64,000 nucleotides of DNA from an uncultured Candidatus Saccharibacteria bacterium (GTDB taxonomy: Bacteria > Patescibacteriota > Minisyncoccia > Phycocordibacterales > UBA12088). Each line of letters starts with the position of its first letter. Within the stretch, counting starts at the first letter, position 1. Below are positions 32,201 through 62,100 of this stretch, piece by piece. The position numbers and the translations under genes are program-made. Where the stretch lies: positions 3,444 through 67,443 of the forward strand of contig CAZWNC010000002.1 of assembly GCA_964635195.1 (NCBI GenBank). Reading direction: 5' to 3'. The notes beneath the pieces were generated by a model. It was not told the DNA's origin. It made no database searches and was given only the letters and a program-made list of their open reading frames with translations.

Positions 32201-35200
32201 GAGTCCGGTATGAGTGCCCACGCACCGGTCGCTTCCGTATAGTATTCGAGATGATACTTGATATCGCCGGCATTTTCAGCATCAGCCCAATCGAGTGTTC
32301 CCCATGCATTACCGGTCGTCCGCCAATCAAAGTCGATCATGGGACTCGTGCTGGTGCCCTCGGTCAAGGGTGGCGTGAGCACGATATCGTTCGTCGACGT
32401 CGCCTCGGTCGATTCGAGATCGTCCTGCTCAAATTGCTCAAAGGTGGTCTGGTGCCAGGTAGAAATAGTGATAGACGAGCTCGCGGTAAAGCTCCACGGG
32501 AGAGACCATTCACCCCACTCACCACTGCCGTTGGTATCCTTTGCTCGCACACGCCACCAGTAGGTACCGTCCGCAAGCGACGTCGTGGGGACAAAACGCA
32601 CGGTTTCCCCGCTATTAAACGGCGCGAGGTCGTTGGTTGATATGATATTTTTAAACTCACTGTTATCGTTTTCACTCGTACTCTCTATCTCCTGCGATCC
32701 AAACGTATAGTCATCGTCAACCTCGATTTGATAATCAAGTACGTCCCCCTTGCCGTCTTCCGCCACAAAAGTAAACCAGGGGGAGGACGAAGCAAGCGCT
32801 TCGTAGGTAAAGGGTGTCGCGAGTGTCGGTGCAACGGGTGGTGCATTGGTAACAAGTTGCGGGTACCGATCGTAGTCGTTCAGTGTCGTACCGTCAGCAT
32901 TGACGAGGCGGAAACAGTAGTTGGTGCTGGAGGTTGCGTTGTGTTGGAGCACAAAATCAAGCTCGGCCTCTTCACCATCAGCAATCGCGCTTGTGTTCGT
33001 CGCGGTATTATTCTCTTCCTCGTACGACAAAAGCACATCAGTGGTCGAGAGGGTGGTGGTCGAGAGGGTGGTGCCATCTGCAGGCGCGTTGTTATACCCC
33101 CGCCAAGGCTCACTACTCCCTATCGCACCAACCTGTTGCCAGGAAAGTGACGCCGAACACTGCGCACCCTCCGCCCACTGCAGTGACCACATCGCAGTAG
33201 TGGCGGCAAGCGTTACGTTGGTGTCCTCAATCGCTAGACGAAGCCGCAACACCTCGCCACTGCTCGGAGCATGACTTGCACCTATTGCTTCATCCTCGAT
33301 CAGATTGTACGCACCGGATGGGTACGCATCGGTCGGCGTGATACCGCTGGTATTTGCAAACCACTTGTAATGCGTCTGCGTGAGGTACGGCTGCCGCTCC
33401 CATGATATTGTCCAATCGTCCAACGTCGGTGACTCGTTTGTATTTGACGTGAGTGTCGCTTTGAGACAGAGTCGATTGTAATCAGTGGTGGTTGCGATTC
33501 CGGAAAGATCCAGTGGGGACGAGGTTGCCGCAAAACCATCTTCATTACCGGGAAGCACGCCGTTCGGTACCACCGCGGTACAGGTGGATGATGCGGCGGC
33601 AGCCCACAGTACCTGCACCTCAACGCTCGTATTACTTGGCTCGGTTGCACTCCACAGCGCTTCACCCCATGACGACTGTCCAACGACGAGGTCGAAATCA
33701 ACGATCGGAGACACGATATTTCCTACTGACGCTTGGTACCGTTGCGGTGCGAGTGCGATCGGCTCCGCATAGGGTGATGTATCATCCGGCATCGAGGTTT
33801 CAAGTGTCTCACGCGAAGACCACCCGCTCCCGTTCCAATAGGAGAAGTCGAAGCGATCATTCGTATCATCCCGAAAAACCGCAAGGATTTTGCCGTCACC
33901 GGTCCGCACTGAACCGGCAGTCCACGAGTCCTCAATCGTCGTGATGCTTTGCTCGGTAGCAGCAAAACTTGAGCCCGTCCACACACGATAGCGTGCGTTC
34001 GTTTCATCACTGTACGGTATCATCAGGTAGCCATCACGGCCGGTCGTCGTTTCGTACTGGCAAGAAATCGGTCGTGCATGATAGGTCGCACTTCCTTTTC
34101 CATCGTTGTCGACCTGTGTCGTACCCGCCACATACGTATCCCATGCATTTGTCGCACCGTTCCAATACGCAATCTGCACCTGCGCATCTTCGTCGATATA
34201 ACACAGTCCAAGGTTGTTGGTACCATCATCCGCCACTAGCTCACCCCACTCGAAGTCGTCCTGAGTATTGCGACTGGTATACGCAGTCCACGTTTCCGCC
34301 GCACTGTTCCACACTGCACCCACAATACCGGGTGTTTGCCCACCGCCGTTTCCAAGGGCAACGACGGCTTCTTCACCCGATTCTTCCCACTCAACTGCCA
34401 TACGCTCGAACATCTCCTCACCAAGTGTATTGGCACCACCCGTGTACGAAGTAATGTTCCACTTCGTTGTTTCATCCCTATAGACTTGCACCTCGAAATC
34501 AGATGTCGTGTTCGCGGAATCCGCCTGTGCCACCATTACGATTTCGTCAGAACTCGGGCTTGCCGCAAGCTTGATCCAGCTGCAGGGTGCGTTGAACTGC
34601 AAATCGATGGTCGAAGTGGCCGACCAATTGGTGCCGTTCCACACCGAGTAACTTGCCTCATAGTTGGTACCGGAATTGTAACAAAAGACCGCAACCGCGT
34701 TGCCGGACAACGATTGATACGCGATATCGAAACCGCGACGATCGATACTCGTCTGATTCGGATTAAGCTCGGTTGCAGTACTCCATGTTCCCGCTGTGCC
34801 ATTGTACACCTGTACATTGACATCACTGTTCACATCCTGTGTCCCCAGCACATACTCATTGCGAGTAGGCGATGACTCGAGCACCGTCCAGCTGATCCGC
34901 CCACCCACGTCCTGCGCAGAGCCCTCGCTCGACCACGCAGTCCCGCTCCATGTGCGATACCGTGGCGTGGTACCCGCGCCCTCGCCGTACGCGACCATTG
35001 CACCGACAGGCGGTGTGGTTGCGATACGCACCTTGTTTTCGCCGTAGGTTTCAGTACTTATAAGTGTCCCATCGTCAAACTGCGCATCTTCGCTCTGATA
35101 CCACGCCTTCGGGTCGGTACCGGAGACGTACGTAAAGCTCTGCACCGCTGACCACTCACCAAAACTGTTTGAACCGCTCGTATCCTTGGCACGTACCCGC

Positions 35201-38200
35201 CAATAGTAGGTGGTGCCGGTCGTAAGAGCAGTTTGTACCGAGAAACGAATGCGATTACCTTCGGTAAAGGGTGAGGTATCCCCACCGGACGTCACATTGG
35301 TAAAGCAATTTGGCGAGCACCCCGTTTCGTTATCTGATGTGCGATCGGCAAGTGGCGAGGTGTCGAGATCTGCGTCATCATCATACTGTACCTGGTAGAC
35401 CAAGTCGGACGTGCCATCCAGATCGGTCGCGCTAAAATCGAGGTACGGGGTCGATGAACCGGTCTTCTCATTATTGAATGGCACATCATACATAGTCGGC
35501 ATTTCCGGCGAGAGGTTGAACGCCTTCCAGTACCCCAACAACCGATACTCATCAGCGGTCGTCGACTCCGCGTAGTATTCGATGGTGGCACTTGCGGTGT
35601 TGTCCGCCTGCACATGCATGCGTCCCATATTGAAGCCGGTCCCCGCACCGTCCGAGTATGCAAAATCGAGCGTGCGTCCCACCGCCGAACCGTTCGCATG
35701 CACACCGAGCACGTTCGACCCACTGGTGTTTGTGGAGTACGCAAGCAACACTTCGGCGATATTGTTCTTGTACGCGCCGTACCCGTCGAGTGCGCGATCC
35801 TGCCATACCGTCGCCGAGGTCGGTCCCGTGAAATCATCCAACCGCTCCTGATAGGTCAACTCGTCCGGCAACGTGGACCAGTACCCAAGCAAGTAGTAAT
35901 CGACCGAAGCGGCAGCCGCACCCTCGACCTGCGCATACCCCTGTATGGTAGCGTTCGACGTCGAGGCAAGTACGTTCATGGTGATGAAGTTGGCACCACC
36001 GTTTGCGCTCTGGTGTATTTTAACCAAGCGACTGAGCGTTGGTGCGGAGCTGTACCAACGCACACCCGCGTCATAGTCGGTACCTGCGGCAAAATTGGCG
36101 AGTGCCATTTCAACCACGTCTGCATCACCCACTCCGTATCCGGAAAGGTTGATGTTATTCCATGTCGCATCATTCGTGGTACCCAGATTTGGGTCGATGT
36201 TTACTAATCGCTCCACATAGGTACCACTCGTCCAATACCCAAGGATGGTGAAGGTTACTTCCGCCGCCACATCAGAGTACACCTGAATGGAAGAAGTCGC
36301 CGACGCCTGCACGTGCATCGTAACGGTTGACAAGCCGCCGGTCACGCCGGATTCATGGAGCAAAAGGTACCGGTTCAGTGTTGAGGTGGCGGTCGAGCGC
36401 ACACCACCATACCGTTCACGGTTGTTACGACTGTTGGTAATGGCGACTTCAACAATCGCATTAGCCGGTACTCCATAGCCTGCGAGGCTTACCGTTCCCC
36501 ATGTGTCATCACTGGCTGCACTGAATGTCTGGTACATCTCGGTATAGACCGCGAGTGCGTCCGACGCAAGCTTCCACTGGCGCGCCTCGACAAATGGCAA
36601 TCCACTGCCCGAACGTACTTCCGCAGGACCGAGGAGGTAGAGATACGGGGAAACATCCGGTGCGTCGTACTCGTAGGAAAAGGTCTGTGTCTCACCGGCT
36701 GTAAGGTCGACGGTCCAGGTAAGGCGTTTTGCGCCGCCCCACACACTCGTCTCTGCGCCACCTGCGTGCACCAGCACAAAATTTTCCGGTACCGCCTCAA
36801 CGAATTGTCCCGTGAAGTCGCTCGTCGCAGTAAGCTCTAGCTCCATCACGTACGATGCCTTGGGCCAGATACGTGTCGCACCACTGCGACGAATGGTGAA
36901 CGGCACCGACTCACGTACTTCAAACGCGTCACTCACCCGGTGCACCACCTCTCCATTTAGGTTTACGTGCGTCAATTGCAAAGTGTATGTCCCCACCGTA
37001 CGCGGGCGGTACCACGCAAGGTAATCGGGGTCATCGGTGACATTGTTTGCTCCACACGTACCCTGTGGTTCCACCCCCACTTCCTCGGCGTTACCCTCAG
37101 GATCCGTCACGGTCAGATGCAGTTCTGCGTTACAGATCGTATCACCCTTGTCGTCGAGGGCCGCCATATGAAATTCAATGGAATCGTCGGGCAGATAGAT
37201 GGATTGTGGCGTATTGATCGCAAGTACCCCCCAGTAGAAATCAAACGAATCGGTAAAAACGGTGCCGAGCTCATCGACACTGATCTCGAGGGTATAGAGA
37301 CCCGGTTGAATAGCTCGCGGCATCTCGGTCATACGTATCGTCCACTGCCCCTCGGTGCCATAGATGACCTCGAACCGCGCATCCTCAACGCGTACTCCGC
37401 CATGCAGGAGGTGTACCTCACCAACCTGCGCCAAGCGCTCACGGAATAGCCCCCGGAAGAAACGATTCACGACACCCTTTTGCGCACGGTACTGCAACGC
37501 AAACTCCGGTCGATCACCAAGCTCAAAATCGCGAAGCGCTTCGCGAAATGCGTGGAAGCGGGGGTCACGTAACTCTCGCATATACGCAATCCCTTGGAAG
37601 AGGTCCGGTCGAGCAAGTGGTTCATACACCGACACCGCGGGTATCGGAAGTTCCTCCAATACACCAAACACAAAGGTAGATGACGCGAGACGATATCGTT
37701 CAAACAATGTGGACACGCGTCCGTCCGCCAAGCGTGTTTCGGTCGTGTGCATATCTTCGGGGAGTACAAATGAAAGCGTGCGGACTCCCGCGGCATACTC
37801 ACTCAAAGCGGGGGTAAGTGAGATAGGTCCGCGCGCAGAGAGTCGCTCAGCGGCATGTGGTATGAATACGTCACGTGACGCACCAAAGGAAAGTGGTGAC
37901 ACGTCAGCATCATCGGAAAGCGTGACACTATTTTCGTCTCGTTCACTCACCACGGACACGACCGCACCTTCCTCCGGCTCCGCAAGACCCAAATACTCGA
38001 TGGGCGAAGCAGTCAACGCAGGCGCATGAAGCCGTGCAGCCTCGTCGACCTGCTCGTTACCAAAGTAAGCGTACAGCGATGTTGTACCGCGCGATCCGCC
38101 ATCAGATAGTTCGACGGCATACTGCGCTTCCTGATCGACGTACGTATACCTGAACTCTTTGACCGGAATCTCCGTTCGTGTACCTGCGTCAAAAAAACGT

Positions 38201-40987: not shown

Positions 40988-42502
40988 CTATTTCAACAAC
41001 TTGCGCACATCCTCGATCTCTTTGTCGATGAGTTCCTCTGAAATATCGAGTGCGTCTTTGAGTGACTCAAGTATGTTACGCTCGTTATCGGTCATGTTCG
41101 GCTTATGGGAAAGCGCGAGCACCTTTTCTTCGATTTCGTCGCGAAGTACACCGAAAATGTTGATGAGTTTGTCGCCCGCTTCTGCCGCTTCACGCTTGAT
41201 GCGATCCTTCTCTTCGGTATGTCGCCGTCTATCTTGAATGAGAATCGTCACAACGACCGCGAGACACGCCATGAACAGAAGTGATACCCAATATATGGCG
41301 CTAAACCCACTTGTCTTTACCTCGGTGGTCTCCACCTGCTTACTCACACCCGTCACCTCAACCTCCACTGAAGCATCACGTGTGTTACCAGCACGATCGC
41401 GCGCAATGACCTGTATGATATGTTTACCCGGCTCGAGGTTCGCCACAGTAAACGCCCCTCCGACAAGCTCAGAGGGCTGTACATCCCGGGGACGCCCGCC
41501 GTCGATAACAAGCTGGTACAGGTCAAGGCCGGAAAGTGTGTCGACCGCCTCAAACCTCGCTTGCGCGGTATTGTCACCTCCGACACCTGTGACAGTAAAT
41601 TCTTCGGGGGGTGTGGTGTCAATACGAATTGCGTAGTGTGTTGAGGAGCTCCAACCGCCACGATTCTTGTAAGAGATATGAAAATACCACACGCCATCAG
41701 TAATTCCGCTCTTTTTCCATGACGCTATTGGCGGTTCGTGCGCTTCTGCCGGTTCGCTTTCTGGCACATCATCAAAGCCGGCCTTCATTCCGGTCACACC
41801 GTAGGGAATATCCCATGCAAGCACCGCCTCCGTGAGGTTATACCAGACAGCCTGGTCGGGGTGCGAGGTACTCTTCACCACCGGTGCGTCCGGCGCGGGA
41901 ATATTGACCTGTCGTTCCTTGGGTGCGGCCTTGGGTGGCGTCACAGGGGCTGGTGCGGCAGGTGCGGCAGGAGTAATAGTGAACGATCCCCCTGCAGGAG
42001 TACCGGTCAGTTTGTTCGCTCCCCCAACAAGGAGCTGCGGGGCTTTAAAAGAAATCTGTGCAGTCCCCTCTTTTTTCGCACGAAATGTGATTGTAAAGAT
42101 AGTGGCACGCCCGCTTGCGGAACCCGTCGTACCGCACCCAAACTCAATCGTTCCTGCTGTATTGTTGGGTGTGGGTTCCGGAGTACACAAGCTAAACGCG
42201 GCATCTTTTGTTGCCGAAACAACAGTGAGCAGTGCCGGATCGAACGTCACACTTCCGCCGGTCGTGAGTCCCCGTAGCGACTCTCCGGCTGTATCGGCGG
42301 CCACTTTTACCTGAAACGACTGTCCAACCGAGTATGAACCGCTTGCGGGCGTAAGCTCATACGTCGCGGCATGTGTTTGAACAAACGACACCAAACATGC
42401 GGCTAACAAAAACGATACCCGCAGTAGTAGGGTCAGAATCGCTGAATACGGCCGTGTACCTGTCGCATTCGTAGTGTAGTGTGGTGTGCATTGCTCGCTC
42501 AT
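40988..42502 (-). CDS. Membrane-anchored cohesin-domain protein (signal/TM, cohesin-like domain, Pro-rich linker, beta-sandwich domain, C-terminal TM, cytoplasmic coiled coil); start moved to MSEQCT
   Basis: A cohesin-like stretch GSVTFDPALLTVVSATKDAAF...AGTIEFGCGTT...RATIFTITFRAKKEGTAQISF. Linker PAAPAAPAPVTPPKAAP. C-terminal TM FSAIYWVSLLFMACLAVVVTIL followed by a KE-rich coiled coil. The ORF-track N-terminal extension would overlap hsp20. Confidence 0.7.
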   Translation of the reverse strand: MSEQCTPHYTTNATGTRPYSAILTLLLRVSFLLAACLVSFVQTHAATYELTPASGSYSVGQSFQVKVAADTAGESLRGLTTGGSVTFDPALLTVVSATKDAAFSLCTPEPTPNNTAGTIEFGCGTTGSASGRATIFTITFRAKKEGTAQISFKAPQLLVGGANKLTGTPAGGSFTITPAAPAAPAPVTPPKAAPKERQVNIPAPDAPVVKSTSHPDQAVWYNLTEAVLAWDIPYGVTGMKAGFDDVPESEPAEAHEPPIASWKKSGITDGVWYFHISYKNRGGWSSSTHYAIRIDTTPPEEFTVTGVGGDNTAQARFEAVDTLSGLDLYQLVIDGGRPRDVQPSELVGGAFTVANLEPGKHIIQVIARDRAGNTRDASVEVEVTGVSKQVETTEVKTSGFSAIYWVSLLFMACLAVVVTILIQDRRRHTEEKDRIKREAAEAGDKLINIFGVLRDEIEEKVLALSHKPNMTDNERNILESLKDALDISEELIDKEIEDVRKLLK

Positions 42503-42519
42503 AGCAAGGAGCGAGTGAT

Positions 42520-43014
42520 TTACTCGCGTGAGTGTTGCTCGTCGACCCGCACCACGTTGAGGCGCAGACCCTTTGATGCCCGGCCGACAAGCGGTAAGCG
42601 CAGTGCGAGTACCCCGTCTTTTGTTTTTGCTTCGGCACGCTCCGGATCGATCTGGTCGGGAAGAATAATCTGACGATAAAAGTCGCCCCAATGACACTCC
42701 TCGAGAGTGTAGTCGCCATTTTGTGTGCTGTGGACTTCGTGCATCAGACTCTCTGGACGCGCTGCTGAGCCTTGAATGTTCACGACGTCGTTCTCACCCG
42801 AAATAGAAACATCGAGCGTACGCATATCCATGCCGGCAAGCTGCGCATAGATAATGATTTCATCGTCGGACTGAAACACGTCAACGGGAAGCTGGAGTGC
42901 GTGTTCGGGCACGACTTCTTGCGAACCACCGTGCTGCGTCGACGCACCTTCAGTCGGTCTGCCGCTTTGATCGACCAGACCTTTGCCTTTGAGTTTATCC
43001 ATGAATGTACCCAT
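42520..43014 (-). CDS. Hsp20/alpha-crystallin family small heat-shock protein
   Basis: 164 aa with an ACD core VDVFQSDDEIIIYAQLAGMDMRTLDVSISGENDVVNIQGS...GDFYRQIILPDQIDPERAEAKTKDGVLALRLP. Confidence 0.9.
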   Translation of the reverse strand: MGTFMDKLKGKGLVDQSGRPTEGASTQHGGSQEVVPEHALQLPVDVFQSDDEIIIYAQLAGMDMRTLDVSISGENDVVNIQGSAARPESLMHEVHSTQNGDYTLEECHWGDFYRQIILPDQIDPERAEAKTKDGVLALRLPLVGRASKGLRLNVVRVDEQHSRE

Positions 43015-43177: not shown

Positions 43178-45064
43178 TTACCCCGTCCAATGGTACAGCA
43201 TGATGGAGAAGTCGGGCAACGAGACAAGACCGTCTCCGTTGATGTCTGCCGCCGTACTTGCCGTGTTCCAATTGAAGAGCAGTATCGAAAAATCGACCAG
43301 GTTCACAAATCCGTCACAATCAAGGTCGCCCTTTCCGATACAGCCGGTATCGGCAACTTCCACCCCAATACCAATCGTCAATCGCGCACTCTTGTCACTC
43401 TCTATACCACTTTCCATTTTAGCCTGAGCAACCAACTCGTAGGTTCCTTGCGAAAGACCGGTCGAAGGTAGGGTGAGTGTCCACGCACCATTCGTTGCTG
43501 CGGTCGTCGTGGCCAGTATGTCACCTACCGACACCTGCGCAAGGCGTGGGCGAAGCCATACGCTGATGTTCGCGCGCGGCACCGAAAAGCCGGAAACCGG
43601 CACGGTCGATCCGGGCTCAATCGAACGATTTGCCACCGTGACGGTAGGTGGAAGGAGTACGTTGGCGAGAGTGGTCACCGTATCGGAACGGATCCAAAGC
43701 GTGGTCGTGTACGAGGCGCCTCGCACCCCTGTTGAGTCCGTGCCCGATACTGCGTAGGTGTACGACCCGCGATCCATTTGCTCGCTGGTATAATTGAATG
43801 AACCGTCACTTCCCGCATTGATGTCACGCGCGAGGGTGCCATCACGCACAATCGACACCACCCCGTTCGGATACCCCCAACCCGTTACGCGCACACCCGC
43901 CTGTGGTAGTTTGGTGCCTACATCCGAACTACTGCCACCCCCTCCTCCACTTCCACTCCCCGACCCGTCTCCACCGCTTGCACTGGAACCGGAGCCAGAA
44001 CCAGAGGCACCGGTTCCGGAGCCCGAACCGGTGCCTATGCAGTCAACGCCAACACAAGTCGACGAAGCGGTTGTCGAAGCGATGCCGGTACCAACCGCGG
44101 TACCGGTCGACGTGGATGTGGTTGTGGCGCTTCCCGGTGGAATACCTATCGTAAAAGTGAGTTCGTAGGCGGGGTCGATGATGTTCATGCGGTAGTCGCG
44201 ACATCGGACAAAAAACGTGTAGGTCAAGGCGTTCTCAAGCCCCGTTTCAATCGCAAAATGCCACGCCGAGTAGCCGGTGGTAGTAGTAGATACGAATGAA
44301 TACGGCATATCGAGATAATCCACGCTCGAGGTGGCGTAGCGACAAATCGCTTGCTCATTAGTCCGCACGAACATCTGGACACCCTGCGTACCCGCTTGCA
44401 GCAAACCGGAGGGCATGGACTCAAGTATGATCGGCGCCTCCTGGTCAGTCGTGTCTGCGGGACCGGCAGTCACTTGTGACACCACCGCGATCATCGTACG
44501 CCCGTAATCTATCTCAGCCGCTCCGTTTGCGGTGTATGTGGTGATGGTCACAGGATACGAACCGGTGGCGTGGGTCAGTACCATGTTACTATTACCACTC
44601 CCCACTGCAGTCGTCCCGATACGCACTTCAACCTCGTAACCCGCTCCGATGCCCACACTCGTATTAAGGTCAAAACGTATCATACCGTTCGTTCCGGTAG
44701 TTACCGACACACCGTCGGTTGCGGCGTTGCGAGTGGCGGAAAGTGGACGTGAGGTAAACGAAACGGTCGAGGTACTTCGAAAGCTCAGATCGATATCGGC
44801 ATAATTGAAGCCGCTTGCGGGAACCGTAAAACCACCGCCGGTAAAGTCCAGCACAATTCGCCCCCCCGCGGGGATTGCCTGATTTGTTCGGAAGGTGATG
44901 GTCTGCGCGGCAGACGCACTCGGTGCACTGGTCGACAGCAAGTCACGCACGTACGAAAGGTACACCGTCGCACTGACCTGTGTTCCTACATATAGAAGCG
45001 CACACATTCCGACACCAAAAAAACTGGCGACTGTTGCGGTGCGATGGGAAACAATCTTTTTCAT
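43178..45064 (-). CDS. Secreted multidomain protein with a C-terminal dockerin-like module (signal peptide, N-terminal beta-rich domain, Gly/Ser linker, two Ig-like domains, dockerin)
   Basis: Signal MKKIVSHRTATVASFFGVGMCALLYVGTQVSA. Linker GSGSGTGASGSGSGSSASGGDGSGSGSGGGGG. C-terminus GDLDCDGFVNLVDFSILLFNW...ADINGDGLVSLPDFSIMLYHW, which is two Ca-binding dockerin repeats. Confidence 0.75.
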   Translation of the reverse strand: MKKIVSHRTATVASFFGVGMCALLYVGTQVSATVYLSYVRDLLSTSAPSASAAQTITFRTNQAIPAGGRIVLDFTGGGFTVPASGFNYADIDLSFRSTSTVSFTSRPLSATRNAATDGVSVTTGTNGMIRFDLNTSVGIGAGYEVEVRIGTTAVGSGNSNMVLTHATGSYPVTITTYTANGAAEIDYGRTMIAVVSQVTAGPADTTDQEAPIILESMPSGLLQAGTQGVQMFVRTNEQAICRYATSSVDYLDMPYSFVSTTTTGYSAWHFAIETGLENALTYTFFVRCRDYRMNIIDPAYELTFTIGIPPGSATTTSTSTGTAVGTGIASTTASSTCVGVDCIGTGSGSGTGASGSGSGSSASGGDGSGSGSGGGGGSSSDVGTKLPQAGVRVTGWGYPNGVVSIVRDGTLARDINAGSDGSFNYTSEQMDRGSYTYAVSGTDSTGVRGASYTTTLWIRSDTVTTLANVLLPPTVTVANRSIEPGSTVPVSGFSVPRANISVWLRPRLAQVSVGDILATTTAATNGAWTLTLPSTGLSQGTYELVAQAKMESGIESDKSARLTIGIGVEVADTGCIGKGDLDCDGFVNLVDFSILLFNWNTASTAADINGDGLVSLPDFSIMLYHWTG

Positions 45065-45095: not shown

Positions 45096-45452
45096 TCACT
45101 TCATCGATCTCCTTCGCACATGATCAAGATAGAAGTTGAGCAGTATGAGACCTAAAAGCACGCTTCCAATGATACTCACGATGAGCATCGTACGCGTATC
45201 GGGTCGACTTTTAACCTCACGTAAGGCCGCTTCCCGCGATTCAAGCTCACGAGCGCGAGCCTCGAGCTGTGCCGCGGTCGCACTGTACTCGTTTTCTGGA
45301 ACACTCGCAAACACACCGATAGTCTGTGCGCGTTGCTCCTCCTTGTGAAGGTCGCGCACATCGGTACCTATGAGGAGCGCGTACGCCGAAAAAACCAACA
45401 ACGTCGCAAGCAACAATATCTTGCTATCCCCGCGAGAATACCGCCAAAACAT
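45096..45452 (-). CDS. Small membrane protein (two TM helices flanking a coiled coil); start moved to MFWRYS
   Basis: Hydrophobic N- and C-terminal helices flank AAQLEARARELESREAALREVK. Confidence 0.4.
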   Translation of the reverse strand: MFWRYSRGDSKILLLATLLVFSAYALLIGTDVRDLHKEEQRAQTIGVFASVPENEYSATAAQLEARARELESREAALREVKSRPDTRTMLIVSIIGSVLLGLILLNFYLDHVRRRSMK

Positions 45453-45720
45453 ACCCACAGTATACCGTATAAACGCTCGATACCGAGCACCACACGAGTG
45501 GATAAACAGTATAGGACTTACGCATTTGGCACATTTCTTTGTCGTCTGCGTCGCAAACCGGCTCACAATATATCTCGATATCGCTCGCCGGTATTGCTCC
45601 CTGACTTCGCGAACTTCATCCACATGCGCAAGTCCTACAATACCATCATCAACAACCAGACTTTCAATCTAGCACCACACGGCGAAGCGCTAAACCGTTC
45701 AGTACATGTAATATAGCTCA

Positions 45721-46944
45721 CTACTGGAAAAAAACGATAGTACCGAGCGATATCAGCACCAGTACCACAATAAGCCACAGTAGGACACGAGATACCCTGC
45801 GAGCAAACGTCATATCTTGTCCGACTGCACGCTTCGAAGGTGCAGTATGTCCCGCACGTTTGAGTTCGCGACGAATGTATGAGCGCAATACTCCAAAGGC
45901 GAGTGCCACAAGAGCCGCACAGGCACCGGCAACCACCCCTATTTCCTTCCACGGAAAGATCCAAAAGGTAAGTTCGTCTTTCAACGTCTTTTGCGCCGTA
46001 TCACCATACCCGACGTTTAAGAGTGCGGTGTACCTGCCGAATGCAAAAGAATCAACAGTCCATGCGGCTTCAAACGCACGTTCGGAACGGGGTAAAATGG
46101 CGTTTTGTTGTTTCTCATTGAATACAATCTGACCCACCTCTTTACCCAGCATGTTTTTGACAACAATAACTCCACGTGGTTTCTGATGTATGGTACCGGT
46201 GTTTTCGACGCGTGTGGTAAACAGTATGCTGGGTTCGGTATAGAGAGAACGATTGGTGAAAAACTCGTGCAGGATCATGTCATCGATCACCTCTCCACTA
46301 ACCCGTAAGTTCACGAGCGTACCGACATTAAAACCCACCCCTGCACCGTTTTCCGCAGTGCCCTCAGCCTCCCGCATGACAAAAATAGCAGCTGCGTGGG
46401 TACCGGGAGAAGCATCCCCCGGCACAGTAATACGATACGGTACCTCTGCAGATCCTCCGACCTCTATCGTCACTGAATCTTGAAGCGGCATAATCCATGA
46501 AGCCAAGCGAAGCGAATCAGGCTCCGTTTCTCGCGAAAAAACAGGACGGCCGTTCTGCTCCATGGTGTCTATATTGCGAACATCGATCCGGTAGGTTTGC
46601 GTGCCTCCATTTTCGTTTGTTACCACAATCGAACCTTCGATAGTGGCACCCGGGTCGACACTCTCTTCTACAACGCTTGGCTGCACTTTCACTGATATCC
46701 CATCGGTCGCGTACGTATACACAGGAAACAGTAAGAGCAGTGCGGAAAACAGGGCAAGGTATCGTGTGTGTGTGTGAGTAGTACTAGCATATCCAACTAA
46801 CCCGGAGACTGCTCCACTGATATGCGTCACAAGAGACTGCTCCAAGGGCGCTTTTCGGGTCTTATTCTCTTGTGTGACGCACCGGCTTCGCTCACAGTCG
46901 TACTCCTTGTGGTTATTTGGGGATGGTATAATACAGGTATTCAT
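45721..46944 (-). CDS. Secreted, C-terminally TM-anchored surface protein, paralog 1 of 3 (CscA/DUF916-DUF3324-like architecture)
   Basis: Signal-like RYLALFSALLLLFPVYTYA, a conserved PGDASPGTHAAAIFV block, and a C-terminal YTFWIFPWKEIGVVAGACAALVALAFGVL anchor. It is homologous to the ORFs at 48390 and 49760. Confidence 0.6.
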   Translation of the reverse strand: MNTCIIPSPNNHKEYDCERSRCVTQENKTRKAPLEQSLVTHISGAVSGLVGYASTTHTHTRYLALFSALLLLFPVYTYATDGISVKVQPSVVEESVDPGATIEGSIVVTNENGGTQTYRIDVRNIDTMEQNGRPVFSRETEPDSLRLASWIMPLQDSVTIEVGGSAEVPYRITVPGDASPGTHAAAIFVMREAEGTAENGAGVGFNVGTLVNLRVSGEVIDDMILHEFFTNRSLYTEPSILFTTRVENTGTIHQKPRGVIVVKNMLGKEVGQIVFNEKQQNAILPRSERAFEAAWTVDSFAFGRYTALLNVGYGDTAQKTLKDELTFWIFPWKEIGVVAGACAALVALAFGVLRSYIRRELKRAGHTAPSKRAVGQDMTFARRVSRVLLWLIVVLVLISLGTIVFFQ

Positions 46945-47022
46945 GACTCACAATGGTTAACTACAAGCCCCCGCACACACTATGCACGAGGGCTTGGCCA
47001 CAGCATTCTCTAATAAGTATCT

Positions 47023-48180
47023 TTAGAAGACCGGAGTCGCTACGTAGGTCAAGGTTGCCGTGTAGTCTTTGGCAGCTTCCTGCAGCTCCATGATCTCAGC
47101 CTTGTAGGCAACCGTGGTGGTGCCGATACCTTGTCCTGCGCTCTCCACGACCGCGGTACCATGGTAGAAGACCTCAACCGGGTTGCCGACGAAGTTACCC
47201 ACATACCCCGCTGCGTTGAAGAAGTCGCCGGAAGCAACCGCAGCATCGTCCGAGGTCAAACCCCAGTGACCGTACGTGTCCAACTGCGAGAAGGTGCCTG
47301 CAGGACCCTGCCATGCGGTGGACACCGCCGTGTCAAGACCATCAATAAATGTGTCGATCGTCGCGGTATTGCCCGCGGTAAGGGTTTGATCGGCCTCAAC
47401 CGTGACTGCAAAGCCGTTGTACGCGTTTGTGTTTACCCGCAACTCCTGCGCAATAACACGTGCTGGCTCGGCCGGCGAAATGATGCCGAAAGGCACCGAG
47501 GTGGCGGTCGAAGTGCCGGTGGTGGTATCAACACCATCCACAATCACACCGTTATTGACAGGATTGATGGAAAATTCAAAAACGGTATTTACCTCTGCGG
47601 TCACCGTGACATCGTCGATGATGTAGACACGGGTGTCACCTTCATCGGTAATAGGAGTCGCACCAGTACCCTGGAGACTGATGACAAAGCCGGAAAGATC
47701 TTCCGCAGCGGGATTGTTCACAAAGTTGACCGCACCCACCTGTATAGTAATCACGCCAGCAGCGACTGTGTCACCCGTGCAGACATTTCCAACGATGTAA
47801 TCTCCCGCACCCACCGAAAGCTCTATTTCGGATGCGGTACCGCTACAGTTGCCCGGAGTGACCGCAGTAAAACCAGCTTCACCGCTCTGCAAGTCAGAAT
47901 CAACGAGACCGGTAAAATTAAATCGGTCTGATCCTTCGTCAAAGTAAATTCGAAAATCCTGACCGGTCGTCATGGCATTTGCCGTCGTGAAGGTAATGGT
48001 GTGCATGGCGTCGGCATTGATGTCCGAATCTGTAATCGTGTCACTAAAATCTTGCACGTTCGCGGCTCGTGCTTGCGAAACCCATGAGGGCAAGCCGAAT
48101 GCCCACGCCAAAAGTGCGAGCATCGTTACCAGTGCGACACTCCTCGGCATCGGAAGTGTGAATGCTGTGTTCGTGTTCAT
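47023..48180 (-). CDS. Secreted WxL-like surface protein
   Basis: It has a signal peptide. The C-terminal region has HWGL and ends DYTATLTYVATPVF, resembling the second WxL motif of Firmicute WxL domains (..LTWTL..P). The N-terminal domain resembles that of the dockerin protein. Confidence 0.5.
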   Translation of the reverse strand: MNTNTAFTLPMPRSVALVTMLALLAWAFGLPSWVSQARAANVQDFSDTITDSDINADAMHTITFTTANAMTTGQDFRIYFDEGSDRFNFTGLVDSDLQSGEAGFTAVTPGNCSGTASEIELSVGAGDYIVGNVCTGDTVAAGVITIQVGAVNFVNNPAAEDLSGFVISLQGTGATPITDEGDTRVYIIDDVTVTAEVNTVFEFSINPVNNGVIVDGVDTTTGTSTATSVPFGIISPAEPARVIAQELRVNTNAYNGFAVTVEADQTLTAGNTATIDTFIDGLDTAVSTAWQGPAGTFSQLDTYGHWGLTSDDAAVASGDFFNAAGYVGNFVGNPVEVFYHGTAVVESAGQGIGTTTVAYKAEIMELQEAAKDYTATLTYVATPVF

Positions 48181-48389
48181 AGACGTTTAATTATTAAGCT
48201 TACTAAATAAGGGGGCTAATAATACAATGTTGCAAAAACCTCACGCCCGCAAAGTGCATTGCGCGCGGTGTGATGGTTGGACGGCTCATGTACACATACG
48301 TGTTGTGTCATATATCCGTCACAGTCAAGTATACCGCACAGCAAGTATCTCACCTACGAATGTGTTGTGGATAACGGAGTACGCTGCAT

Positions 48390-49763
48390 TTAAGGCTGCG
48401 GAATCGGCATCTCTATCTGGTCACCTGTAGCACGTTCTTCTGTTGCTCGAAACGGCCGCTCGGTGGTGAGTACGTCGGAAAAATAGGCGTGCAACGCGAG
48501 TATGCACAATACCCCGAAGCACACGAAGAGGAAGAATGAACGATAGGTGCGTATGAACGTGCGCATTTCCATGGGGTGTACCGCATGTGTGTCGTGAGGG
48601 GTCGAAACGCCACCAACCCGCCGCAAATCGACCATACTCGCGCGTATCGGTCGTACAAGCGTTTTTAATCGCAATGCCTGACCGGTGTCGATGTCGTACG
48701 TTCGAGTAGCTGATGTCGTGTCACCGGAAACCGCAGGGTTTACGACTGCACTCACCTGCTCGGCACTCGAAACACGCTCAAGCGCAAGAGCCCGTCGGAC
48801 ATATGCGCGTATCGCCCACGCAATGAAGCGAAACACCAAAAAAGCCGCTACAGAGAGTTCGATGAGCGGTATCAAGGGCAGCACCCAGAAGTACGTGGTC
48901 GAGTGCGCAAACTGCTTACTCGTAAGTCCGTACCCAAGAGTCACTTCTGCACGGTATCTGCCGATGTCCCAAACGCCCGCGTCCGAATCCCACGTAAACG
49001 CGTACGAACGGATACTGTTTGGAAGCACATTACCAAAGCCGTTTGTTTGGTTAACGGCTATTTCGCCGCGTTTCTTGCCAAACATGTTGTATATCGTTAT
49101 CGCTCCTTGCGGCTGTAGATGGACATTTCCGAGATTTTCAAACCGGAGCGAGAGTCGTGCACTCGCACGTTCATACAAAGAACGTTCCGTTACAAACTCA
49201 CGCACCCTCCCCCGCTCTACCACGTCACCCGAGACTCGCATAAGCACAAGTGAGGCGATGGCACTGGTTACCGCCACAGTCCCCTCTTCGCGAGCACTGT
49301 CATCCGGTGGACGATTTCCGATAAGCATGGCCGCGTAGTGCCCGCCCGGTGCAGCGTCACTTGGCACCGTGAGTGTAAAGGGGATCTTCAAAGTACCCTC
49401 ACGCACTATCAATTGACCCTCGGCCGGCGCGGTAATCCATGATGCGGACGTGCCTTTTTCAAATACCGGCACACCGCTACTTGCACGTGTTGCATGTATA
49501 AAACGAGGACGGCCGCTTTCCCCGGTCGGCTCAAAACCAACCGGCTCCGCATACACCGTCATATCGTACGGATTACTGTTAACAACGGTTATTTCACTCG
49601 ACCAGGTCTCCCCGGGTGCGATGGATATCTGGAAGAGAGGTGGCGTCACCGTGAATGTCATAGATCCAGCACTACCGGCGTGGGCAAACGGGGCAACACA
49701 CAGGAACAAACAAGAGACGCCGGTCAGCACCAACACATGAGCAAGAAAGAGACGAAAGATCAT
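48390..49763 (-). CDS. Secreted, C-terminally TM-anchored surface protein, paralog 2 of 3
   Basis: Signal MIFRLFLAHVLVLTGVSCLFLCVAPFAHA, block PSDAAPGGHYAAMLIG, C-terminal YFWVLPLIPLIELSVAAFLVFRFIAW anchor. Its start overlaps the stop of the upstream paralog (ATGA-type coupling). Confidence 0.6.
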   Translation of the reverse strand: MIFRLFLAHVLVLTGVSCLFLCVAPFAHAGSAGSMTFTVTPPLFQISIAPGETWSSEITVVNSNPYDMTVYAEPVGFEPTGESGRPRFIHATRASSGVPVFEKGTSASWITAPAEGQLIVREGTLKIPFTLTVPSDAAPGGHYAAMLIGNRPPDDSAREEGTVAVTSAIASLVLMRVSGDVVERGRVREFVTERSLYERASARLSLRFENLGNVHLQPQGAITIYNMFGKKRGEIAVNQTNGFGNVLPNSIRSYAFTWDSDAGVWDIGRYRAEVTLGYGLTSKQFAHSTTYFWVLPLIPLIELSVAAFLVFRFIAWAIRAYVRRALALERVSSAEQVSAVVNPAVSGDTTSATRTYDIDTGQALRLKTLVRPIRASMVDLRRVGGVSTPHDTHAVHPMEMRTFIRTYRSFFLFVCFGVLCILALHAYFSDVLTTERPFRATEERATGDQIEMPIPQP

Positions 49764-51115
49764 ACACGTCTTCGCGAGGAAAGTTGTATCGAACCCCCTT
49801 CAGTAGTTGTCGCTTGTGGTCTACGAGGAACCGTGCCAAGTTGGACCGCCTTACCTTTCGTGACAACATCTTCACTCACCCGAGAAAGTCGAGGAATAGA
49901 TGGTGCATGCGTACTAAGGAGTACAGCGTCAGAGTTTTGTGCCACCGATCGTGATACCCTTGCTATTCGTGGTGGTGGCGGTGGTGAATGATTGTCGAGT
50001 GCGGAATGATGCTCCTCGCTCACAGTCACTACAGCGTGCATGGGACGAGCAACTGCGCGCATATGGACGATGTACGTGCCAATAATCGCGAGGACAAGCA
50101 CGCCACCCAGGGAGACGAGTATCTCTTTCCATGGGAATATCCAAAAGTAGACAGTGTCCTGCACACTCGCAAGCTGATCCTCGCCGTACTCGAGATCCAA
50201 GAACGCTTTATATTTCCCGAAACGACCGCTTGCAGTCCATGCGGCCGCAAGTTCTCGCCTACTCTCGGGAGTAATCTCTTCACCGTCTGCGTTGAGCGGT
50301 ACACTACCCACTTCTTCACCACGACGATTGAAAATTCGAATCGATCCTCTAGGTTGCACCAGCCTGTTACCGACGTTCTCCAGCATGTATGAGAAGTTGA
50401 CCACATCACTCACAACAATCGGATCCTCGGACATGAAACCGCCAAGCTGCAGTCGTTCATTGGCATCATCTTCAACTTCAAGGTTCAAAATGAGCTCCGC
50501 AACCGCTTGTGCTGCTTCAGCCTTGGCGCGGTTTTGACCCTGGTGAAAAGAAATGCGCGCAAAGTATGCCGCGGGTTTTGCACTCAAATTGACGTGAACA
50601 AGATACGGCACCTTTCTGCTTTCGCCGGCCTCAAGCTCAATAACACCGCGTGTTATTTCGACCCAATTCGCAAGTGAGGTCGAAAGATCCGCTTCAAGCG
50701 GGCTCACGGCGATTTGGTCACCCGACATCGGATCGATATTGCTCACCGTAATGTACACACTTACGTGTTGTTCGGTATTGTTCGTAAGGAGTAGTTCTTT
50801 CTTGATAATATCACGCGGTTTCGCTTTTTCATTTGCAACCACCGGGAGCACGGTCACACCTTCAGCCTTTTGAGCTGGTTCTTCTTGCGCACCGACTTCC
50901 GTTTTTACGACATCAGGCAGATCGCCGCCTTCCATACGTGGTTCCACGACTGCGTCACCCTCCTCAGAAACTACACCTTCTTCATCAGACACAATCGAGG
51001 GAGCGTCCGATTCTTCAACTTGCGCGTAGAGCGGCATACACAACACACTTGGAGCGATTACAACGCCAAAAAACAAAGCCACGCTAACGGCTATCCGCAA
51101 CGAGTTGGTATGCAT
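49760..51115 (-). CDS. Secreted, C-terminally TM-anchored surface protein, paralog 3 of 3; start moved to MHTNSLRIAV
   Basis: Signal LRIAVSVALFFGVVIAPSVLC, an acidic segment, and a C-terminal VYFWIFPWKEILVSLGGVLVLAIIGTYIV anchor. The ORF-track N-terminal extension would overlap the next gene. Confidence 0.6.
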   Translation of the reverse strand: MHTNSLRIAVSVALFFGVVIAPSVLCMPLYAQVEESDAPSIVSDEEGVVSEEGDAVVEPRMEGGDLPDVVKTEVGAQEEPAQKAEGVTVLPVVANEKAKPRDIIKKELLLTNNTEQHVSVYITVSNIDPMSGDQIAVSPLEADLSTSLANWVEITRGVIELEAGESRKVPYLVHVNLSAKPAAYFARISFHQGQNRAKAEAAQAVAELILNLEVEDDANERLQLGGFMSEDPIVVSDVVNFSYMLENVGNRLVQPRGSIRIFNRRGEEVGSVPLNADGEEITPESRRELAAAWTASGRFGKYKAFLDLEYGEDQLASVQDTVYFWIFPWKEILVSLGGVLVLAIIGTYIVHMRAVARPMHAVVTVSEEHHSALDNHSPPPPPRIARVSRSVAQNSDAVLLSTHAPSIPRLSRVSEDVVTKGKAVQLGTVPRRPQATTTEGGSIQLSSRRRV

Positions 51116-51176
51116 ATCTCCATTGTAGCGCACTCCCGGGACTCGCGTGAGTAAACGATACCGCGAGGTGGGGATA

Positions 51177-53162: not shown

Positions 53163-53258
53163 GTATACGTCAGATCACTAAAACGAGCCACTTCATTCTC
53201 GGGATTCGTATACGCAATCCGTCATTCGAACCCCGGATACGGTAAAAAGACCCTCGAA

Positions 53259-59112: not shown

Positions 59113-62100
59113 CTAGAATACTGGTACAACGATATACACCAGCTTACTCTCGTACAGACCTGCCGCTTGGCCGATATTTGCTCGAATGCGGTACACGATA
59201 TCAGTCGACTCCGCGGGAACAGGCCCGCCACTGTACGCCACCTCGGCAGCTGCATTGGAAAGAGCGGCAAACGTATCGGGCGCCAAAAAGCGTGTCGAAC
59301 CACCGGCGAGCGTGTTGTCCCCCGCATGGTAACCAAAGCAACTGGGAGCGAGCACTGCACATCCGCTACTCCAGCCTACCGGAGCGGCGTTGGTGCCGGT
59401 GATACCCTGTATGGTCTGGCCGGCACCTGCGGTCAACGGTTGTCGCTCGTAGGCGAACACCTGGTAGCCATTACTCGCATTGGTCGAAACCGTCAAACGC
59501 TGTGCGGCATTGAGGTCCGTCCCAAGGGAAAGAGACCCAAACGGAATAGAGAGTGCGGTCGTTGTAACGTCCATCACCACCCCTTCGGTCGAAGACCCGC
59601 TTGCAACACCACTTACCGTGAAAGTCACCTCACCGCTTGCAGACACAATCGACGGATAACTCCCGGGCACAGTCGAAGTACTGACCGGCGCGTCCGCGTT
59701 CACGTCATACACCCGGAAGTAGTAGACCTGCCCAACCGCAGCGTCCTTGTGCATCAACGTAAACTCATGTTCCTGTACCGCACCTGCAGGGAAAGAAACT
59801 CCGCTTGCGCCCCCACGATACAGAACGCCACTCGAGGTACCGAACGCAAAGTATCCCACCCCTTCATTTCCATGCGAACGCTCGCCATCATCTCGCTCAT
59901 CGATTGCAAAGAGAGTACTTTCACTCATGACCTCATCGTAGCGCACCCAACCACCCTCGGCACCATTGCGGGTCTGTTTACTTGCCACGAGACCCGGTAC
60001 ACGGGTAAACCAGTCGAAAGGAAACAGCTCTTGATACCACGGGGTGTTTGACCAACCCGAAACAACCACTCCGGTCGTCGTTGCGACGATAGGGGTACCG
60101 TTATTCTTGAACGCACCCCCCTCGATCGCCACCCAGCCATACGTTTCCGGCATCGTCGGCTCGTTTGTTTCGCCGTCGGGTACCTCCATTGAGCACGCGA
60201 AGTCGTTTGCTGTCACAAGCGCCTGCGACGCCGTGAGAAAGTCGGGGGTTCCCGTATTATTGTCTGTTTGGAGTGAGGTCAAGAGGATGGGTGCATCAGA
60301 GAATGTCTGCGTGAAGCTACAAGTATCGTCGGAAGCGCCTGAGACATCGCTCCCGTAGTAGTGCATGGTATCACGCGTTCCCACGTCCACACGCCTCCCG
60401 TCCGGCAAGAGGTGTGCTCCCCGTTCCATCACAACATACCCGACCGTCTCAGGTCCGTGTGAACCCACCTCATTGTCAGGCCGTATAATACGCACGGTCA
60501 CACTGTTCGTCGAAGTACCGGTAATACTTGCAACAGCCGGCCGATTACCTGCACCACCGCCACTATCGCCGGAAATAGCTTCGACGATAAACACCGGGTC
60601 ATCGTAGGTGTGCAAAAGTGAAATAGTGGTACCTGTGCCATCCACAGAAGTGGTGCCCACTTCTCCGATCACATCGGGCGAATACGTGTACTCGGTGTGT
60701 GTACCGCAGCCATCACCCACACCACCACTGCATGCATTGGCGGTAAGGACAACGTCTTGCACGGGCTCCCCTTCTTCACCCGCACCATTTGCCATACACC
60801 ACCGCGAGCCATACACACAGGTGTCTTGGTCGACCACATCGTACGCAACACTGAAATCAGACAGGGTCGAGTACTGGAGCTTGAACTTCACATTTGTCCC
60901 CGTTTTGCCCGCCACCTCAGCAAGGGTAACACGTAGCTTGAACACGTCACCCGGCCCCACTCCCGAAGGAGCCGTGTTCGTTGCAGCGAGGGGACTAACG
61001 GGAGTGAGTGATGTCTCGTCGTCAAAGAAACGCCAGTTGCCCTGTGTCACTTCGAAACCTGCCGTTGTAAGCGTTGGGTGGTAGGTGTACGTTGCAAACT
61101 CGCTCAAATCATCATTCACCATACGGAAACAGTACGCGGTCTTATCTGCCACACCGTTCGGGGTAAGCACCCAATCATACTCAACATCATCATTTATCCT
61201 CAGCTTGTAAGGATTCAATGATGTTCGTCCCGACTCCTCGTAGGTGCCCGCACGGTCCGCTACCGAAAGATTGAGATCGCCTCCGGTGGGGGGGTCGCCG
61301 GAGAGCGCTGTACCGGCAAGAGGTGAGGCGTTGTAACCGCGCCATATTGTGGTTGAAGCGCTGTCACCCACCTCATGCCATTCAGTGATGGCCCCGCACA
61401 CAGTAGTACGCACACCGTACTGTAGTCTAAAACGCTTCGTCTCACGCGAGACACTCGAGCCATGTACCAAAACGGACATGCGCAGACGCAATACGTCACC
61501 TTCGGTGGGAGGATCGTCGGAAAGTGTAATCGGCGCATATTCTCCCAAATTCCCCGCACCCGGTGGCCACGCGTCGGTGGGATCAAGCGCATCGTTGTTG
61601 TCGTACCATTGGTAAAAATTTTGTTCGAACGCAAGCTCGGCGGTCGGCCACTCCACCACTTCGGTCCGGTACGAACGAGCGGAACCGGTATCGGATATCC
61701 ACAATTCGTAGTGCGTCGTCGAGGCAATGGTCGCACCCATGATGGCTCGCGGGTGTGCAGTAGTGTTGCCGAGACCGATCATGTTCATAAAAATCGAGCT
61801 GTTCGAAAGTGCGGAAAGGGTGGTGCCAATCGGAATGGAATAAGTTGACGGTTCGACACCACCCGATGCTTGTGGGTTATTACTTCGCGTGACCTTCAGC
61901 GGACTCCCGTTCGTTTGGGTATTTTCGATCACCCACGCAACATGCACGTGGGTGTTCGCAGAGGCAGCGGTCGAAGGAATGTAGTACGACACCTGCCCCA
62001 CCGACGAAAGCCACACTTCGTGACCGAACTCATCAACCTGATTCACCCCAACACGCTTTTGAGTGTGTAGAAACGCGCGTGAAGCATCATTGACGGCCGT

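Follow-up and report, generated by a model that had tools for sequence, protein, structure and literature searches.

Organisation of the cassette

Four adjacent genes, designated here G, F, Mid and D, lie on the minus strand of a 64,000-nucleotide stretch of DNA (the window) from an uncultured Candidatus Saccharibacteria bacterium (assembly GCA_964635195.1, contig CAZWNC010000002.1, positions 3,444 to 67,443). G, F and D encode related membrane-anchored proteins, and Mid encodes a secreted protein of two domains. The initial annotation of this sequence described the genes as a cassette resembling the Csc/WxL clusters of Firmicutes, in which a membrane-anchored WxLIP (CscA) protein is encoded beside secreted proteins carrying a C-terminal WxL domain. 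Homologs of D and Mid come exclusively from metagenome-assembled genomes (MAGs) of Patescibacteria (Parcubacteria/Paceibacteria). The window also holds housekeeping genes for GAPDH, RNase J, a penicillin-binding protein (PBP) transpeptidase, MraW, and RelA/SpoT. The presence of the PBP transpeptidase together with ordinary chromosomal genes indicates that this is a chromosome of a peptidoglycan-walled member of the Candidate Phyla Radiation (CPR).

G lies in an open reading frame (ORF) at 49760-51301 and probably begins at an ATG at position 51118 ('MHTNSL...'), which would place the gene at 49760..51118. In the G protein, a signal peptide and an acidic N-terminal linker of ~70 residues precede two beta-sandwich domains, one transmembrane helix and a cytoplasmic tail of ~100 residues. 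The start codon of F (48390..49763; 457 residues, as defined from the ORF list, BLASTP and hydropathy) overlaps the stop codon of G in the sequence ATGA. The F protein consists of a signal peptide, two beta-sandwich domains, a first transmembrane helix, a loop of ~90 residues and a second transmembrane helix. Mid (47023..48180) encodes 385 residues and was characterised with an AlphaFold2 model, homologs and domain hidden Markov models (HMMs). D occupies the ORF at 45721-46944; a GTG at 46830 is its probable start because homologs are ~355 residues long. Its product, studied with AlphaFold2, Foldseek and hhalign, has a signal peptide, PGBD-like and HBD-like beta-sandwich domains and two C-terminal transmembrane helices.

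Pairwise BLASTP alignments of D with F (31% identity over 320 residues, E 4e-43), D with G (31% over 285 residues, E 3e-31) and F with G (25% over 310 residues, E 5e-16) cover nearly the whole ectodomain and the first transmembrane helix. They bear out the earlier claim that the three ORFs are paralogs which align over most of their length. The collinear blocks quoted in support of that claim are also found: VPY.I.VP.DA.PG, F.NR.LYE...EN.G..H..P.G.I, and FW[IV][FL]P followed by a transmembrane helix.

Three orthologous groups can be distinguished per locus, and each group has its own conserved topology. The G-type proteins, present in 39 loci, are ~427 residues long, with one transmembrane helix (38 of the 39 loci) and a tail of ~118 residues. 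The F-type proteins (~443 residues) have a long loop and two C-terminal transmembrane helices (36 of 39 loci), and the D-type proteins (~357 residues) also have two C-terminal transmembrane helices. Judged from their sequences, G, F and D can be regarded as anciently diverged membrane-anchored paralogs.

Distant homology to WxLIP proteins

Are G, F and D related to the WxLIP proteins of Firmicutes? In a Pfam scan, D matched PF06030 (DUF916, WxLIP_PGBD) with 15 bits (E 0.025) against a cut-off of 27.3, and F and G had no match to this model. Sub-threshold matches to PF06030 were found in 23 of 43 family members (best E 1.6e-4); among the same 43, the generic immunoglobulin (Ig)-like families Ig_VWA7 and DUF7927 were matched about as frequently. 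PF11797 (DUF3324, WxLIP_HBD) did not match any of the 43 members at E <= 0.1. Thus the hmmscan that had been proposed as a check on the family assignment returned PF06030 below threshold and left PF11797 and the WxL model PF13731 unmatched. Family membership by curated thresholds (Pfam, NCBIfam) is not claimed here, since the cut-offs were missed.

Profile and structure comparisons all point to WxLIP. A search of all PDB sequences with the family profile A1 retrieved EfmWxLIP1 (9i25_C and 9i1y_A) at E 1.4e-4 and nothing else below E 1. The AlphaFold2 model of D has a predicted local distance difference test score (pLDDT) of 87.4 and consists of two beta-sandwich domains followed by two long C-terminal helices. 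When this model was searched against the PDB with Foldseek, the top three matches were the Enterococcus faecium WxLIP structures 9i1y/9i25 (E 5e-14 to 7.5e-13). The runners-up were fimbrial chaperones and RbmA, at 4e-10 or worse and four orders of magnitude weaker.

Genuine WxL clusters for direct comparison were taken from Listeria, Lactiplantibacillus, Lactococcus, Enterococcus, Melissococcus, Levilactobacillus, and Vagococcus plasmid records. Aligned with hhalign, profile A1 matched four Firmicute WxLIPs with a probability of 96.9% (E 1.9e-10) and ten Firmicute WxLIPs with 97.7% (E 2.5e-12, 239 columns). These alignments are collinear across 236-239 columns and both domains, and they extend to template position 275-283 of ~345. 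The HMM searches were reciprocal. Among 3394 ORFs of CPR loci, the Firmicute WxLIP HMM found 30 at E <= 1e-3, and 30 of the 30 belong to the G/F/D family. Conversely, the CPR family HMM ranked all ten Firmicute WxLIPs first (2e-14 to 8e-3), with noise starting at 0.21.

Because hhalign, the reciprocal HMM searches, the PDB profile search and the top Foldseek matches agree, G, F and D are best regarded as true but very distant WxLIP homologs, at ~15% identity. The earlier assignment of the paralogs to CscA therefore holds as remote homology, on each of these four comparisons, and fails as Pfam membership.

WxLIP/CscA proteins are known from Lactobacillales, Listeria and Enterococcus, with structures (9i1y and 9i25) from E. 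faecium. The CPR proteins share with them a signal peptide, two tandem beta-sandwich domains in the same order, a C-terminal membrane anchor, and, for the D type and the type found in rearranged (Type-2) loci, a length of ~350 residues. In both systems the genes adjoin those of secreted proteins with a common C-terminal domain, and a disordered acidic loop lies within domain 1. In D, this loop comprises residues 131-144 (pLDDT ~53), which both the PDB profile search and hhalign align with the acidic loop of WxLIP. A WxLIP hairpin loop has been described that is disordered when free and is predicted to become a strand inserted into WxL (PMC10599100). The loop at 131-144 of D may be the same element, for which that paper gives no residue numbers. 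The CPR proteins differ from WxLIP/CscA in their ~15% identity, which leaves them below Pfam gathering scores, in the three paralogs per locus where the Firmicute system has one, and in their CPR rather than Firmicute host.

The two domains of Mid

The AlphaFold2 model of Mid (pLDDT 88.8) consists of two beta domains. The N-terminal domain, MidN, corresponds to residues 40-198 (window 47587-48063), and the C-terminal domain, MidC, to residues 196-385 (window 47026-47595). Homologs of Mid number more than 879, all from Patescibacteria, and none has a Pfam match. The protein starts with a signal peptide, carries 'HWGL' at residues 305-308, and ends in '...DYTATLTYVATPVF'; the WGL and the tail noted in the initial annotation are thus both present.

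Is MidC a WxL domain? None of the standard tests (PF13731, hhalign, Foldseek) supports this part of the annotation; the individual results are weighed below. The profile of Mid had no match in the PDB at E <= 10, and a global hhalign alignment of MidC with WxL failed. Foldseek searches with the full-length Mid model gave only poor two-domain matches (MSCRAMM adhesins, integrin legs, TasA, SpaD), with TM-scores of at most 0.31. A short WxL protein of Enterococcus mundtii, used as a query against the PDB, had no solved relative either.

The 'WGL' of Mid was considered as the first of the two WxL motifs and rejected as a conserved element, because 'FGYHAGD' stands in its place in the MidC domain of L1612, a large protein encoded upstream of the cassette. 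'NGFAVTV' (F257) is a better candidate that hhalign chose independently, and this choice was unstable once the MidC alignment was made more diverse. In hhalign, the best local matches covered both WxL motifs, with 'ELRVNTNAYNGFAVTV' opposite 'D.RGTN.GW.L.V' and 'AKDYTATLTYVATP' opposite 'A.tY.sTLTWeLs..P'; only the last-strand motif was aligned consistently between MidC and the different WxL sets. In place of two Trp-x-Leu motifs, MidC has [FY]-x-V (F257) and Y-[IV]-[AV] (Y379) at the candidate positions.

A WxL HMM ranked MidC proteins as 20 of its 40 top matches among the 3394 ORFs, compared with 2-6 for reversed or column-shuffled controls, with all matches below 8 bits. This enrichment in rank suggests, as a weak hint, a link between MidC and WxL. 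MidC resembles the WxL domain in this weak, composition-controlled enrichment and in having aromatic-x-aliphatic motifs, one located in a hairpin ('NGFAVTV') and another in the last strand ('DYTATLTYVATP'; the WxL counterpart reads 'tYtsTLTWtLs..P'). Like WxL, it occupies the extreme C-terminus, and within one cluster it does so in a short protein as well as in large surface proteins of several domains. It differs in that sequence and profile similarity is not significant, neither motif position has a conserved tryptophan, and the Asp/Arg pair before motif 1 is absent. In addition, Mid has the extra N-terminal domain MidN, which it shares with a dockerin protein. MidC is either a WxL domain that has diverged beyond recognition or a non-homologous analog.

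Just behind the predicted site of signal cleavage, residues 37-66 of Mid are highly conserved ('A.AA....FSDTLSDSD....HTI.FTT'), and residues 33-60 of the dockerin protein Doc628 are similar. MidN also contains two invariant cysteines (C112 and C134). The conserved start and the cysteine pair could represent a functional N-terminal strand and a disulfide. Tandem duplicates of Mid occur in loci L012, L023, L026, L035, and L074. Solitary extra copies, with no flanking WxLIP-like genes, are found elsewhere in the genomes that contain L007/L015/L040 and L011/L020.

Distribution of MidC and MidN

HMMs of the Mid domains were used to search 80 related loci from species-representative genomes. MidC was found at the extreme C-terminus of 28 additional proteins (371 to more than 2387 residues), most of them encoded directly upstream of the G-F pair. 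The complete ones are ~431-448 residues long; larger ones range from 566 to more than 2387 residues, many of them cut by locus ends, and three are short locus-end or split fragments. The domain ends at the very last residue in 26 of these 28 C-only proteins, as it does in Mid. In the window, MidC forms the last 171 residues (window 59116-59628; HMM E 5.3e-21) of L1612, a large surface protein of at least 1612 residues encoded at 59113..63951 on the minus strand. L1612 is the candidate counterpart of a long WxL protein, and Mid that of a short one.

MidN was found at the N-terminus of 35 additional proteins, and nearly all of those with complete C-termini end in a double-repeat dockerin. The representative in the window is Doc628, in which MidN spans residues 36-199 (HMM E 3.3e-15). 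The resulting triad of N-only, N+C and C-only proteins is present in 14 or more complete loci.

Two proteins, one short and one long, each with a strictly C-terminal MidC and encoded beside WxLIP homologs, represent the organising principle of the Firmicute WxL clusters (PMC9772566, PMC10599100), regardless of whether the C-terminal domains share ancestry. The cluster organisation proposed in the initial annotation is therefore present, and in a stronger form than was noted, since MidC also ends large proteins; the WxL domain itself is unconfirmed.

A conserved neighbourhood with a cohesin-dockerin pair

The locus extends far beyond the coordinates that were first given to the cassette: it covers roughly 20242-51118 plus 59113-63951 of the window. 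At least 240 stretches in species-representative genomes encode Mid. In many Paceibacteria loci the order of genes is X-MidC, G, F, Mid, D, a protein with two transmembrane helices, MidN-dockerin, Hsp20, cohesin, and the giant gene. This order of ~11 genes recurs in Kaiser-, Lloyd-, Nomura- and other Paceibacteria lineages.

Downstream of D, the window contains sm175 (45096..45455, minus strand), a small protein with two transmembrane helices and a coiled-coil segment between them, recognised by sequence and synteny; a protein of this type follows D in ~35 related loci. The next gene, Doc628 (43178..45064, minus strand), encodes a secreted protein of 628 residues with MidN, Ig-like domains (Big_13) and a C-terminal dockerin, as identified by HMMs and Pfam. 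The Dockerin_1 match scored 22.7 bits against a cut-off of 22.9, both calcium-binding repeats are visible, and the double repeat at the C-terminus is kept in more than 30 loci or orthologs. Coh569 (40988..42697, minus strand) has an N-terminal hydrophobic segment, a cohesin domain (PF00963, 30 bits against a cut-off of 24.1) and a C-terminal transmembrane helix. It is probably the membrane anchor for the dockerin protein.

As in cellulosome-type systems, the secreted Doc628 ends in a dockerin with two duplicated calcium-binding segments, and a membrane-anchored cohesin protein is encoded two genes away, the pair being kept in synteny. The pair differs from those systems in that no glycoside hydrolase or carbohydrate-binding module was detected here, and in that it sits, as putative partners, in the WxLIP-like locus of a CPR bacterium.

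The gene between the dockerin and cohesin genes (42520..43014, minus strand) encodes an Hsp20 small heat-shock protein (PF00011, E 4.4e-10, and synteny). An Hsp20/alpha-crystallin gene occupies this place in at least 15 related loci; a cytoplasmic chaperone of this kind is odd in a surface-protein locus. The listed start of the cohesin ORF (GTG at 42697) overlaps the Hsp20 gene, so that the true start of Coh569 is probably further downstream.

The giant protein (20242..40593, minus strand; 6783 residues) matches only DUF2341 and Ig-like families, and showed no MidC, MidN, cohesin or dockerin match. In at least 12 related loci, the gene that immediately follows cohesin encodes a homolog of its N-terminal region, which makes the giant protein a member of the conserved neighbourhood. 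All three neighbours named in the initial annotation are present: the cohesin passes its Pfam cut-off, the dockerin falls just short of its own and shows both calcium-binding repeats, and the giant gene is in the ORF list.

Upstream of the cassette, an equivalent of L1612 (435 to more than 2387 residues) is encoded directly next to G in most related loci. In the window, genes for an aminotransferase, an M17 leucyl aminopeptidase and a small membrane protein of ~190 residues (51177-54569, minus strand) are found directly upstream of G, and the same genes occur in L006, L009, L010, L012, and L013. The small membrane protein alone is encoded upstream of G in L007, L008, L011, and L062, and the X-MidC gene takes that place in other lineages. 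Between these housekeeping genes and L1612 lies an ORF of 1349 residues (54962-59011, minus strand) with no Pfam match and no homolog in the 80 loci. It seems to be a lineage-specific insertion that parts L1612 from the cassette.

A second arrangement, Type 2, is found in loci L036, L047-L061, L064-L076, L082, and L084, which come from Nomurabacteria, Kaiserbacteria and others. The order here is giant-like, one WxLIP-like gene, a dockerin-family gene (~370 residues), Mid, cohesin, a dockerin-family gene (~250 residues), and an L1612-like gene. The families are the same as those described above, and their order and copy numbers differ. The Type-2 WxLIP-like protein, with ~318 residues, a single transmembrane helix and a short basic tail, has the canonical WxLIP architecture.

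Expression of the cassette

The initial annotation regarded the cassette as a single operon on the strength of the overlap between F and G. The ATGA overlap is present, and the idea of one operon is weakened by a hairpin of 15 bp (46964..46996, minus strand, from the centroid structure) that lies ~27 nucleotides past the stop codon of Mid (-24.4 kcal/mol, z -2.85). A strong hairpin after Mid is conserved among the related loci (L006-L085), where the median best energy over 50 nucleotides is -21.8 kcal/mol (n=84). For the other seven genes of the locus, the median downstream hairpin is -9 to -14.6 kcal/mol. In many cases a U-tract comes after the Mid hairpin. The element is probably an internal terminator or attenuator, and its strength, conservation and position directly after Mid argue against a simple single operon. 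Such an architecture suggests strong expression of Mid as the structural component and an attenuated read-through from Mid into D.

A scan for sigma-70 promoter and terminator consensus sequences was uninformative, with counts no higher than in shuffled sequence, and the 5' region upstream of Mid had no significant fold. No LPXTG-type sorting signal was found in any window ORF of at least 80 residues, and no sortase was found in the window.

A possible surface-display system

What might such a locus do? With somewhat better than even confidence, it is read here as a Csc/WxL-like system for non-covalent surface display, extended by a cohesin-dockerin pair. The ectodomains of G, F and D would capture the MidC domain of secreted proteins, as in the Firmicute system, probably by means of the acidic loop of domain 1, which would be inserted as an extra beta-strand. 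There would be two MidC cargoes: the abundant short protein Mid, with MidN and MidC, and the large L1612, with a variable N-terminal payload. A second anchor route would be provided by the dockerin protein, which would show MidN while bound to the cohesin protein in the membrane. The analysis shows the paralogy of G, F and D, their homology to WxLIP, the domain architectures and the conservation of the locus; from these we infer the binding of MidC by the WxLIP-like proteins, the strand insertion, the cohesin-dockerin pairing and the surface location.

A Csc/WxL cluster has been defined as at least one WxLIP and at least two WxL genes within four genes, and the Firmicute WxLIP family is tightly coupled to partner proteins of the same cluster (PMC10599100). 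The complex of WxLIP with a long WxL protein has been solved (9i25). The CPR locus contains three remote WxLIP homologs. It also has two genes with MidC (Mid and L1612), a domain that is not demonstrably WxL and so does not supply two adjacent WxL genes. The small LPXTG protein CscD, which is frequent and not obligatory in such clusters, was lacking among the window ORFs of at least 80 residues.

A number of observations weigh against a Csc/WxL-like system. PF13731 matched none of 62 Mid homologs at E <= 0.1 and none of ten large-protein C-termini at E <= 10. Comparison of MidC with short, long, mixed and diverse WxL alignments by hhalign gave probabilities of 0.3-2.3% (P 0.02-0.2), and no WxL chain was among the top 50 PDB matches of the full-length Mid model in Foldseek. 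On the WxLIP side, the motif NQIDKxxxYFDLK (PMC10599100) is absent from the CPR family, which has a gap of 11 residues opposite it in hhalign. D and F have a second C-terminal transmembrane helix, and G and F have long cytoplasmic segments (~100 residues); the canonical WxLIP has neither. The stoichiometry is inverted relative to the Firmicute system, and in the window four genes separate L1612 from G.

Alternative interpretations

An alternative that we consider unlikely, if worth weighing, is that the locus builds a polymeric surface fibre or S-layer. Mid would polymerise head to tail through contacts between MidN and MidC, the MidN-dockerin protein would form the base, docked on the cohesin of the membrane, and the MidC-only protein a tip adhesin. 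The WxLIP-like proteins would act as chaperones or assembly platforms, comparable to the PapD-type chaperones, which cap subunits through donor-strand complementation. The triad of N-only, N+C and C-only proteins in at least 14 complete loci fits such an assembly and can equally well be read as one payload domain (MidN) on two anchors. No other family approaches Mid in size (more than 879 matches), its gene is sometimes duplicated in tandem (L012, L023, L026, L035), and the strong conserved hairpin after its gene would be expected of a highly expressed major subunit. The D model resembles the chaperones CfaA, CsuC and PapD (Foldseek E 4e-10 to 3e-7), and the Mid model has weak matches to the TasA fibre and the SpaD pilin. 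However, the TM-scores of the latter do not exceed 0.31, an interaction between MidN and MidC is purely hypothetical, and no usher, sortase or LPXTG signal was found in the window.

A more specific and somewhat less probable version is a modular fibre peculiar to CPR bacteria and not described before. A MidN-Ig-dockerin base would sit in the membrane cohesin, Mid subunits linked head to tail would form the shaft, a giant, lineage-variable adhesin with a C-terminal MidC would form the tip, and the three WxLIP-like proteins would be strand-complementing chaperones. If this is true, monoderms would have their own counterpart of chaperone-usher pili, and the fibre would be a candidate for the organelle by which Paceibacteria attach to hosts. 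Like the WxLIP-like proteins, the chaperone-usher chaperones (PapD, CfaA, CsuC) have two Ig-like domains, and they are the next-best Foldseek matches of D; they act by strand complementation of a partner, the mechanism that has been proposed for WxLIP too. They differ in being periplasmic, whereas the proteins described here are membrane-anchored with neither an usher nor an outer membrane, and the two groups have no sequence similarity.

It is also doubtful, and slightly more so, that G, F and D act on their own, as Ig-like adhesins of the membrane or as proteins that bind the wall, with no particular partner encoded nearby, and that their adjacency to Mid reflects nothing but co-regulation of surface proteins. 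Domain 1 does have sub-threshold matches to Ig_VWA7, DUF7927, NPCBM_assoc, and fn3_5, and a role in binding host surfaces has been suggested for the second WxLIP domain (PMC10599100). Yet the fixed order G-F-Mid-D and the three groups, each with its own topology, are kept across distant Paceibacteria, which points to a multi-subunit assembly, and even in the rearranged Type-2 loci one WxLIP-like gene stays by Mid. The tight association of Firmicute WxLIPs with their cluster partners (PMC10599100) and the solved complex 9i25 also speak against independent adhesins.

Convergence of a generic beta-sandwich pair and a transmembrane helix, with no ancestry shared with the Firmicute Csc proteins, is very improbable: the missed Pfam cut-offs, the identity of only ~15% and the modest TM-scores to 9i1y (0.38-0.49) would fit it, whereas hhalign (97.7%) is collinear through both domains, the reciprocal HMM searches part the family fully from background, and WxLIP heads the PDB matches in sequence as well as in structure.

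Significance for CPR bacteria

Most CPR bacteria are believed to live as episymbionts, and little is known of their machinery for attachment. From this locus come concrete candidates for proteins of attachment and surface organisation. Among the surface-protein neighbourhoods of Paceibacteria genomes, the one that contains the relatives of WxLIP, together with the cohesin-dockerin pair and the giant protein, is one of the most conserved. If MidC is an anchor module, it could be used to predict which large proteins are shown on the cell.

WxL/Csc clusters are seen as essentially confined to Firmicutes (Bacilli), and more than 91% of WxL sequences are from Firmicutes (PMC9772566). A full-text literature search found no paper linking WxL or DUF916 to Patescibacteria/CPR and no description of the locus. 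As judged by the profile comparisons, the WxLIP component constitutes a newly recognised, deeply divergent branch in Paceibacteria that Pfam has missed, and it raises the possibility of an evolutionary link between the surface display of CPR bacteria and that of Firmicutes. Also unreported is the combination of WxLIP-like genes with a cohesin-dockerin pair, Hsp20 and a giant protein.

The title 'uncultured Candidatus Saccharibacteria bacterium' is attached to many related MAGs (from binchicken and SRP co-assemblies), yet their loci match those of Paceibacteria/Parcubacteria MAGs. The titles may thus be placeholders or mislabels.

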